A DNA stretch of 63,217 nucleotides from Escherichia coli (lineage in GTDB: Bacteria; Pseudomonadota; Gammaproteobacteria; Enterobacterales; Enterobacteriaceae), in assembly GCF_003334255.1 (NCBI RefSeq), contig NZ_QOWU01000026.1. The stretch is one strand, 5' to 3'. A model generated the notes under the pieces. The model saw only the letters and a program-made list of their open reading frames with translations, had not been told where the DNA came from and ran no database searches. Below, one piece after another: positions 58,271 to 59,043 of the stretch; within the stretch, counting starts at the first letter, position 1, and each line of letters opens with the position of its first letter. Position numbers and translations under genes: made by a program.

Positions 58271-58688
58271 TATTCAGCAGGTGCTTGAACGCTGGGGCGC
58301 ATGGGTGGCCAATAATCATGAGGATGTGAGCTGGTCGCCCATTGCCGCCGGATTTAAGGGGCTGATCCCGTCAAAGGTTAAATCACGGCCTCAGTGTACC
58401 GATGACGATGCGCTGATTATCAGCAATTGCATGGCGCAACTGAACGTCAACAACAGCGATTTGCATGATTTTCTGTATGATTATTATGTGTTCGGGATGA
58501 CGCTTATGTCACTGGGCCGTAAGCATGGGCGCTCTGATTGCTGGGCCGGGCGGGTACTGCAAAAAGCAGAAGGTGTTATTGAGGGGATGTTGATCATGCA
58601 GGGAGTAAAGCTGGAAATGGACAGGTACGTTGAGCGTGAACCATCAGGATCACAGGCCAGTCAGTTTGCCGGACGTGCGGGAAATTGA
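58263..58688 (+). CDS. Late-gene antiterminator Q (QuuD/phage-82-type family)
   Basis: ORF 58158..58688; start at [24 protein letters not shown]...; overlaps ninH stop. Confidence 0.75.
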
Positions 58689-58712
58689 AAGCGCGAGTTT
58701 TTACTGTAGAAT
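58685..58712 (+). promoter_or_regulatory. Candidate late promoter pR'
   Basis: TTGAAA (58685..58690) - 16 nt - TAGAAT (58707..58712), overlapping the Q stop codon. Confidence 0.45.
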
Positions 58713-58887
58713 AGCTGCGGGTGCTTGAGGCTGTCTGCCTCGGGCATGCAGCCGTAAGGCAGACAGAGAAAAGCCCCAGTTAACATTACGCGTCTTGCAG
58801 GACGCTTAACATTAATCTGAGGCCAAATCTATGACTTACAAACTTAGGTTAGCCTCTTACGTGCCGAAAGGCAAGGAGAAGTAGGCT

Positions 58888-59043
58888 ATGAAGCAGCAAA
58901 AGGCGATGTTAATCGCCATGATCGTCATCTGTATTACCGTCGTAGTGATAGCACTGGTAACGAGGAAAGACTTCTGCGAGGTACGAATCCGAACCGGCCA
59001 GACGGAGGTCGCTGTCTTCGTAGACTACGAATCTGAGAAGTAA
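58888..59043 (+). CDS. hok: Hok/Gef-family type I toxin
   Basis: 51 aa MKQQKAMLIAMIVICITVVVIALVTRKDFCEVRIRTGQTEVAVFVDYESEK; below ORF-track cutoff, read by hand; short upstream ORF 58831..58884 in mok position. Confidence 0.85.
   Translation: MKQQKAMLIAMIVICITVVVIALVTRKDFCEVRIRTGQTEVAVFVDYESEK

Follow-up and report, generated by a model that had tools for sequence, protein, structure and literature searches.

Type I toxin-antitoxin systems of the hok/sok family are well studied, and the described loci closest to the one treated here are hokW/mokW/sokW of the phages 933W and Sp5 (VT2-Sakai), the hokD-type loci of lambdoid prophages and hok/sok (parB) of plasmid R1. The hokW/sokW locus of Sp5 was reported to be a type I toxin-antitoxin pair which doubled phage release after mitomycin C, and HokW was found to share 44% identity with the Hok protein of R1 (PMC8621323). 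In R1 the locus stabilises the plasmid; translation of hok is coupled to that of the leader reading frame mok, the antisense RNA Sok lies over the mok start, and the mRNA is folded back by pairing of its 5' element, tac, with a fold-back inhibitory element, fbi, besides the alternative pairings of ucb and dcb. In the present study a stretch of 63,217 nucleotides (nt) of Escherichia coli DNA (contig NZ_QOWU01000026.1, assembly GCF_003334255.1), referred to as a whole as the window, was analysed with regard to a short toxin gene located directly behind the antiterminator gene Q of a prophage. With a probability of about 0.8 we assign 58685..~59170 of the window to the hokW/hokD subgroup, as a complete type I toxin-antitoxin locus made up of hok, mok and sok (Table 1). 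Its sequence and structure elements are all present, and its expression, toxicity and biological role are what we infer by analogy with the described systems.

An earlier note, made from the sequence alone, had recognised a toxin of 51 amino acids (aa) of the Hok/Gef type at 58888..59043, and this was borne out by a match to Pfam HOK_GEF (PF01848; E = 3e-21) over the full model (positions 1-42 of 42) and by 90.2% identity to the HokW proteins of 933W and VT2-Sakai. The complete model (1-157) of the Rfam family RF01794, named 'sok', was found at 58719..58893 on the plus strand, scoring 118.4 bits (E = 1.2e-27) where the gathering score is 59; as this match has the orientation of hok and extends as far as the hok AUG, it identifies the leader of the hok mRNA and not the antisense RNA. 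The Hok protein missed the cut-off of the curated NCBIfam subfamily (50.8 against 73 bits), so that it was named at family level only, and no PADLOC model matched it, but neither outcome argues against membership because the Pfam and Rfam results stand. Likeness to hokW/mokW/sokW extends over 58706-59107 with 92% DNA identity in an almost gapless alignment; both Hok proteins comprise 51 aa, the two loci share their tac, ucb, dcb and fbi elements, sokW maps to 58769-58839 on the minus strand, the mokW start falls on 58831, and both loci are prophage-borne. Toxicity of Hok and its neutralisation by Sok were shown only for this 90%-identical pair, HokW/SokW (PMC8621323), and would by analogy be expected here. 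Among 94 distinct hokD-type loci from viral contigs, conservation was about 0.9 across 58706-59107 and about 0.3 outside, and since the conserved block is bounded at 58706 and 59107, the conserved unit runs from the -10 hexamer to fbi. The extent of 58685-59043 given previously needs correction at one side: its features are present where they had been placed, but its end lies too early, as the 3' untranslated region with fbi (59093-59105) and a hairpin (59128-59170) was left out.

Comparison with hokD (relF), which had been suggested as a check, placed both genes in the same Hok subfamily. The leader of hokD-type loci is 88-95% identical to that of the window in more than 4000 E. coli genomes, and their usual prophage position is the early right operon, as in the window, although the nin region, upstream of Q, is where typical copies are located. 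The hokD of the K-12 prophage Qin differs in having lost the leader, with relE ending 71 nt upstream, and hokD-type copies end in a strong terminator, which the window locus lacks. From R1 hok the leader and toxin sequences have clearly diverged in the alignment; in R1 mok is read in another frame and overlaps hok, whereas in the window it is in frame and stops short, and the R1 locus serves a plasmid, whereas the present one resides in a prophage. Identical or near-identical DNA was detected in 29 of 5426 complete E. coli genomes, where the RefSeq copies bear the PGAP names 'antiterminator Q family protein' and 'Hok/Gef family protein', and the DNA of phage PhiR12_3 (PV340552), in which the reading frame is noted as 'host killer protein', is 100% identical; a literature search for induction of PhiR12_3 or of the ECOR13 prophage returned nothing relevant. 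The locus is canonical and ordinary: it belongs to a well-studied family, its DNA was already annotated, and hok/sok itself adds nothing new.

The structure of the mRNA was examined in an alignment that took in hokC, hokB, R1-type hok, an O157 prophage copy and an IncY plasmid copy, with L011 serving as the R1 reference and L007, in which an IS150 transposase gene ends about 110 nt upstream of hok, passed over. In a Klebsiella copy (L012) an ISKpn28 transposase gene lies directly upstream of hok. The minimum free energy (MFE) fold of the full-length mRNA pairs 58719-58730 with 59093-59105 (z = -5.9), and the tac/fbi duplex reaches -21.5 kcal/mol, a value equalled by none of 300 shuffled 5' ends. 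In hokB and R1 the tac and fbi sequences differ from those of the window at both ends yet compensate each other; within the hokD subgroup no covariation of tac and fbi was measurable because the pairs are almost invariant among 95 sequences, so that compensation is found only between subfamilies. The GC-rich inverted repeat of the leader, formerly regarded as the basis of both fold-back and Sok targeting, is present with arms at 58720-58740 and 58757-58777, but it constitutes the 5' tac hairpin, and is neither the fold-back element (59093-59105) nor the Sok target (58769-58839); compared with 933W it shows one compensatory change from G-C to A-U. In the full-length fold the mok Shine-Dalgarno (SD) sequence (GAGG, 58819-58822) is held by the CCCC stretch 58774-58777 of ucb: positions 58773-58775 and 58777-58779 find their partners in 58817-58819 and 58821-58823, so that of the mok SD only G58820 is left uncovered. 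The open form, with tac/ucb and mok-SD/dcb pairing, corresponds to the Rfam consensus pairs, which are canonical in the window, and both the closed and the open form fit the hok model summarised in PMC9841398. Downstream, the hairpin at 59128-59170 is the probable 3' end of the full-length hok mRNA and, judged from its modelled fold, possibly leaky; its stem ends and T-run are conserved in the diverged L147 as well as in the related loci L144-L146. A partial complement of 13 nt, with only six contiguous pairs, links 58830-58842 at the mok start to 59110-59122 and was set aside as a probable chance match.

On the opposite strand a cis-encoded Sok RNA with promoter, hairpin and U-tail over the mok start is predicted. 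In the antisense fold, 15 nt at the 5' end stay single-stranded across the mok start; behind this tail come a long hairpin, spanning 58824-58773, and then UUUUCUCU as a U-rich tail. In K-12, sokC and sokB are placed in the same way with respect to the mok starts of their own loci. Probe YO-597 of PMC8621323 has the same sequence as the Sok promoter stretch, and in the same work a mutation of the sokW -10 hexamer abolished the antitoxin activity and protection (PMC8621323). Consensus scans had missed the Sok promoter as well as the terminators of Sok and hok, which were placed by homology and folding instead; for the promoter this is explained by its -10 hexamer, TAACCT, with only three of six matches. 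Under the 5' tail of Sok, six of 15 positions carry another base than in sokW, and cross-protection between the Sok of the window and sokW is for this reason unlikely. Across the window, L144-L146, L004 and L148, loci otherwise 92-95% identical, a stretch under the Sok 5' tail (58825-58848) that consists of mok codons 1 to 6 and the adjoining upstream bases was seen to vary widely; such variation fits a diversification of Sok-target specificity that would avoid cross-talk between co-resident loci.

Table 1. Features of the window around the hok/mok/sok locus; positions count from the first letter of the window.
Feature	Position	Strand	Evidence or remark
Q antiterminator gene	58263..58688	+	Pfam Phage_antitermQ 5.8e-48; annotated 'antiterminator Q family protein'
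Accessory segment: hok/sok, 7-bp repeat, type IIG restriction-modification (RM) genes	58641..62501	+	Homology to TL-2011c breaks at 58640 and resumes at 62502 (BLAST)
hok promoter, TTGAAA-16-TAGAAT (predicted)	58685..58712	+	10/12 consensus matches; -10 aligned with hokW, hokC, hokB and R1 hok
Inferred hok mRNA 5' end, tac element GGGUGCUUGAGG	58719..58730	+	First position of the Rfam model; pairs with 59093-59105
5' hairpin including ucb (anti-SD for mok, ~58773-58779)	58720..58777	+	Inverted repeat and Rfam consensus pairs
Predicted Sok RNA, ~71 nt	58769..58839	-	933W sokW misc_RNA maps exactly here; hairpin fold z = -3.7
mok leader reading frame, 17 codons, in frame with hok	58831..58884	+	ATG 58831; amber TAG 58882-58884; SD GAGG 58819-58822
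Sok promoter, -35 TTGCCT (58874..58869), 17-nt spacer, -10 TAACCT (58851..58846)	58846..58874	-	Identical to the 933W sokW stretch
hok Shine-Dalgarno sequence AAGGAGAAG	58873..58881	+	Conserved in all aligned hok loci; opposite strand overlaps Sok -35
hok toxin gene, 51 aa	58888..59043	+	Pfam HOK_GEF 3e-21; 90.2% identity to HokW
fbi, fold-back inhibitory element CCUCAACGCACCC	59093..59105	+	Complementary to the mRNA 5' end, one bulged C
Terminator-like hairpin (CCGCA...UGCGG) and U6 tract	59128..59170	+	Folds, weak; z = -0.9 alone
Type IIG (BcgI-like) restriction/methylase gene	59218..61355	+	PADLOC PDLC03616 6e-228; out of frame (OFF) in the window
(GACCAGC)11 repeat in the 5' end of the RM gene	59227-59303	+	TRF
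RM specificity subunit	61415..62509	+	PADLOC Specificity_II 9e-21; annotated 'restriction endonuclease subunit S'
Displaced end of ancestral Q, late promoter pR' and terminator	62502..62601	+	86% identity to the Q-stop/pR' region of TL-2011c

The near-consensus promoter described previously as overlapping the Q stop is indeed present: the scan gave the -35 hexamer TTGAAA at 58685-58690 and, after a spacer of 16 nt, the -10 hexamer TAGAAT at 58707-58712, and the stop codon TGA of Q (58686-58688) lies inside the -35 hexamer. The 1.1-kb region contained three promoter-like sites as compared to 1.4 +/- 1.3 in shuffles; as the scan match alone is thus not above chance, the call as hok promoter rests on homology and position. 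The -10 hexamer and the first transcribed bases GGGUGCUUGAGG stand in register with the promoters and 5' ends of hokW, hokC, hokB and R1 hok, the block common to the 94 viral loci begins at about 58706, and both hexamers are kept in a diverged lineage with the same junction of Q and hok. From these features TTGAAA-16-TAGAAT is the predicted promoter of hok, not a late promoter. It had been proposed as a candidate late promoter, which would make it the Q-dependent pR' and would turn hok and the RM genes behind it into morons of the late operon, at the place occupied by stx in Stx phages. The position itself speaks for such an arrangement, for the real pR' of Stx2 phage TL-2011c likewise overlaps the end of Q and the placement at the Q stop resembles the ancestral one: in TL-2011c the stop codon TAA of Q lies in the spacer of a TTTACG-16-TATCAT promoter, followed by a terminator with stx2 downstream, and these were taken as pR' and tR' because their placement fits the expectation. 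However, 58641-58720 showed no sequence similarity to the pR' region of TL-2011c in BLAST, and 58685-58712 is not trailed by a short leader, tR' and late genes, the hok mRNA leader coming next. Moreover, the aligned hok promoters and 5' ends belong to loci unrelated to Q, and in L147 hok has its own different upstream sequence, with two opposite-strand genes between it and the nearest Q-family gene. What is more, a homologue of pR'/tR' was found at 62502..62601, where the last codons of the ancestral Q survive (62502-62527), the scan gave TTTACA-16-TATCAT at 62517-62544, and a terminator (62577-62592) is followed by a T-run, with STnc100 (Rfam, 62696-62912, 149 bits) further downstream. A function of TTGAAA-16-TAGAAT as pR' is accordingly very improbable.

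By its sequence, the phage late promoter is assigned to a site 3.8 kb downstream of Q, not at the Q stop codon. Q of the window shares 72% identity with Q of TL-2011c, yet the similarity stops at 58640, about 16 codons before the stop, and the C-terminus of about 16 residues was replaced by one without homology to the Q of Stx phages. Because homology breaks at 58640 and resumes at 62502, a segment of 3.86 kb between the body of Q and pR' is seen to stand in place of the final ~19 codons that the ancestral Q had. The suggestion that hok and the RM genes fill the slot between Q and lysis that otherwise carries stx does not hold in this form either, for they lie (58641-62501) upstream of pR' (62517), whereas stx lies downstream of pR'/tR'. 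The main value of the analysis is a corrected prophage map, with a displaced late promoter and, within the 3' end of Q, an inserted accessory cassette; pR' in its displaced position and the repeat-switched RM gene are more notable features of the region than hok/sok.

A number of observations weigh against a complete and working toxin-antitoxin locus. The short reading frame in the position of mok had been predicted at 58831..58884 and was confirmed from ATG 58831 to TAG 58882-58884 with 17 codons, but in hokW and in 120 of 120 viral hits (the C-or-T pattern) codon 18 is CAG and not TAG. mokW and mokC share the stop codon of hok, mok being in frame with hok in the subgroup, and mokW runs in frame into hokW over 70 aa, whereas the mok of the window stops at the amber codon. 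Five premature stops in the mok of R1, all placed before the hok start, eliminated toxicity (PMC9841398). Decay of hok loci is common, for hok is frameshifted in two of three loci examined of the sister Q-hok lineage, and the K-12 copies examined are defective, hokD being without leader, IS150 abutting hokA, whose mok is a pseudogene, and IS186 lying just downstream of hokC. Furthermore, the Sok -10 hexamer agrees poorly with the consensus, only a weak terminator follows fbi, hokW in 933W lies far from Q beyond the late genes, whereas the present locus abuts the Q stop on the early-operon strand, and in a large survey hok was enriched in prophages but not generally so in the neighbourhood of defence systems (bioRxiv 10.1101/2025.08.07.668861).

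From the amber codon in particular it could be assumed that the locus is intact in sequence and yet silenced, the stop uncoupling or weakening the translation of hok, so that the toxin would not reach a lethal level and a decaying passenger or a mere source of Sok RNA would remain. All 11 hits with the TAG pattern have their upstream 290 nt in common with the window and hence represent one and the same Q-hok lineage, which is in line with this assumption, as are the premature mok stops of R1, the frameshifted sister loci and the disrupted or truncated K-12 copies. The sister lineage (about 92-94% identity) has CAG at mok codon 18. On the other hand, mok extends across the hok SD (58873-58881) and leaves 3 nt between its stop and the hok AUG, a geometry favouring termination and reinitiation, and for R1 it was stated that mok has to be translated 'at least up to the hok SD' (PMC9841398), as it would be here, the stop falling after that SD. 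In addition, the hok reading frame is undamaged in the window, as it is in all those of the 11 TAG-lineage contigs that reach the hok stop, with two protein alleles, and the RNA elements are all intact. We consider silencing unlikely, but because mok ends 3 nt before the hok AUG and its relatives carry CAG, the activity of hok is uncertain, and whether such a mok still couples translation is a question that can be tested. In the sister lineage, L144 and L146 carry in hok (6626-6782) an insertion of 1 nt, TTAATTCGCC, and are annotated as frameshifted, L145 being intact; this shows that the toxin of the cassette has been inactivated recurrently in the sister Q-hok-RM lineage.

Behind the complete locus that we favour follows the type IIG RM gene, whose linkage to hok/sok is a further difference from hokW/sokW. 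Only if the copies of the 7-bp repeat number a multiple of three does the ATG at 59218 share the frame of the annotated RM gene, which starts at TTG. In a comparison of the window with L001, L002, L137, L140, L141 and L144-L147, copy numbers of 9, 30 and 54 yielded RM reading frames of 707-905 aa, whereas with 11 (window), 19, 34 and 83 copies and with the interrupted array of L001 the frame stopped early, after 35-220 aa; L147 possesses 64 copies, likewise not a multiple of three. The in-frame N-terminus stretched the start of the PADLOC profile match from position 36 to position 15. Judged from these frames, the prophage RM system looks like one subject to repeat-driven ON/OFF phase variation, with arrays of up to 93 copies. 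Several IMG/VR contigs end inside the repeat, and copy numbers from short reads, possibly including the 11 of the window, may be unreliable. For neuO, the capsule O-acetyltransferase gene of prophage CUS-3, the frame is likewise open only at a copy number that is a multiple of three. Relevant to the RM gene only, neuO is comparable as a prophage gene with a 7-bp tandem repeat in the 5' coding end, but differs in the repeat unit and in its product, which is not a type IIG RM enzyme; it was described as phage-encoded and phase-variable (PMC13001214). On the reverse strand of the repeat PGAP annotates a 'YXWGXW repeat-containing protein' (window 59200-59313; L001 10019-10786, and other RefSeq genomes) and PhiR12_3 notes a 'drug resistance transporter'; these reverse-strand reading frames are probably spurious and created by the repeat.

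The RM gene was found in 30 of 5426 complete E. coli genomes and the stretch from Q to the RM start in 29, largely the same strains. Strain E7-1N7 (L147) bears a copy of the RM gene with 80.8% identity in a different context, again behind a hokD-type locus, from which it is separated by a spacer of ~170 nt with a similar hairpin and T-run preceding (GACCAGC)64. Hok/sok, the 7-bp repeat and the type IIG RM genes form a conserved cassette between Q and the late promoter, with hok/sok as its first part. Between hok and the RM start codon no sigma-70-like promoter was detected on the plus strand by the scan, which is crude and could let a weak promoter escape, and a strong terminator follows fbi in hok loci without RM (O157, K-12 hokD), whereas all RM-linked copies have a weaker hairpin instead. 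Linkage, absent promoter and weak hairpin allow a functional coupling, which may be thought of in two ways. According to the first, the promoter and transcript of hok would mainly drive or regulate the RM gene by read-through of 59128-59170, with the toxin-antitoxin function being secondary; the missing promoter, the conserved replacement of the strong terminator and a linkage kept at 80.8% divergence agree with this, but apart from the crudeness of the scan the hairpin does have a U-tract, and the full toxin-antitoxin regulatory set, for which a mere promoter would have no need, is conserved, so that we hold it to be improbable. According to the second, hok/sok and the repeat-switched RM genes would be one co-inherited functional cassette, in which the hok promoter and a leaky terminator transcribe the RM gene, or hok/sok kills cells that lose the cassette, or both, and in which the position between Q and pR' would lead to early-operon read-through and to the release of Hok on induction; this we advance tentatively and regard as doubtful. 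The strict linkage between hok/sok and a phase-variable RM gene may point to a functional partnership, which can likewise be tested.

For the locus as a complete toxin-antitoxin system, a circuit can be drawn up from the R1 hok/sok model and the hokW/sokW experiments, supported here by the presence of every element. The promoter overlapping the Q stop would start the mRNA at about 58719, and pairing of tac with fbi (59093-59105) would yield a closed form in which ucb holds the mok SD and the mRNA stays untranslated, until slow trimming from the 3' end takes off fbi, whereupon tac would pair with ucb and the mok SD be freed. Sok of ~71 nt (58839 to 58769), made from its own promoter inside the region of mok and the hok SD, would pair over the mok start and block the translation of mok and so of hok, probably with cleavage by RNase III. 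Once the supply of Sok ends, mok would be translated, the hok SD opened and Hok made, and the inner membrane would be depolarised. Sok might be lost with the element itself, by the shut-off of transcription by an infecting phage, or at induction, when polymerase from pR passing through Q would collide with the sok promoter. The scan showed no terminator between Q and hok, and as both lie on the same strand, early-operon transcription should run through hok and against the sok promoter. By analogy, the most likely role is the stabilisation of cassette and prophage by post-segregational killing. Help with lysis on induction, as reported for hokW, may possibly be added, but this role is not simply transferable because hokW occupies another site in the 933W genome; abortive infection alongside the RM system is a further possibility.

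Outside the locus, a ceN48 snoRNA match with 26 bits against a gathering score of 70 was discarded as noise. Matches at the level of the Rfam gathering score were found elsewhere in the window at 37757-37828, 41860-42049 and 50665-50753 (minus strand), comprising a tRNA, a C4 antisense RNA beside isrK, and sRNA-Xcc1.

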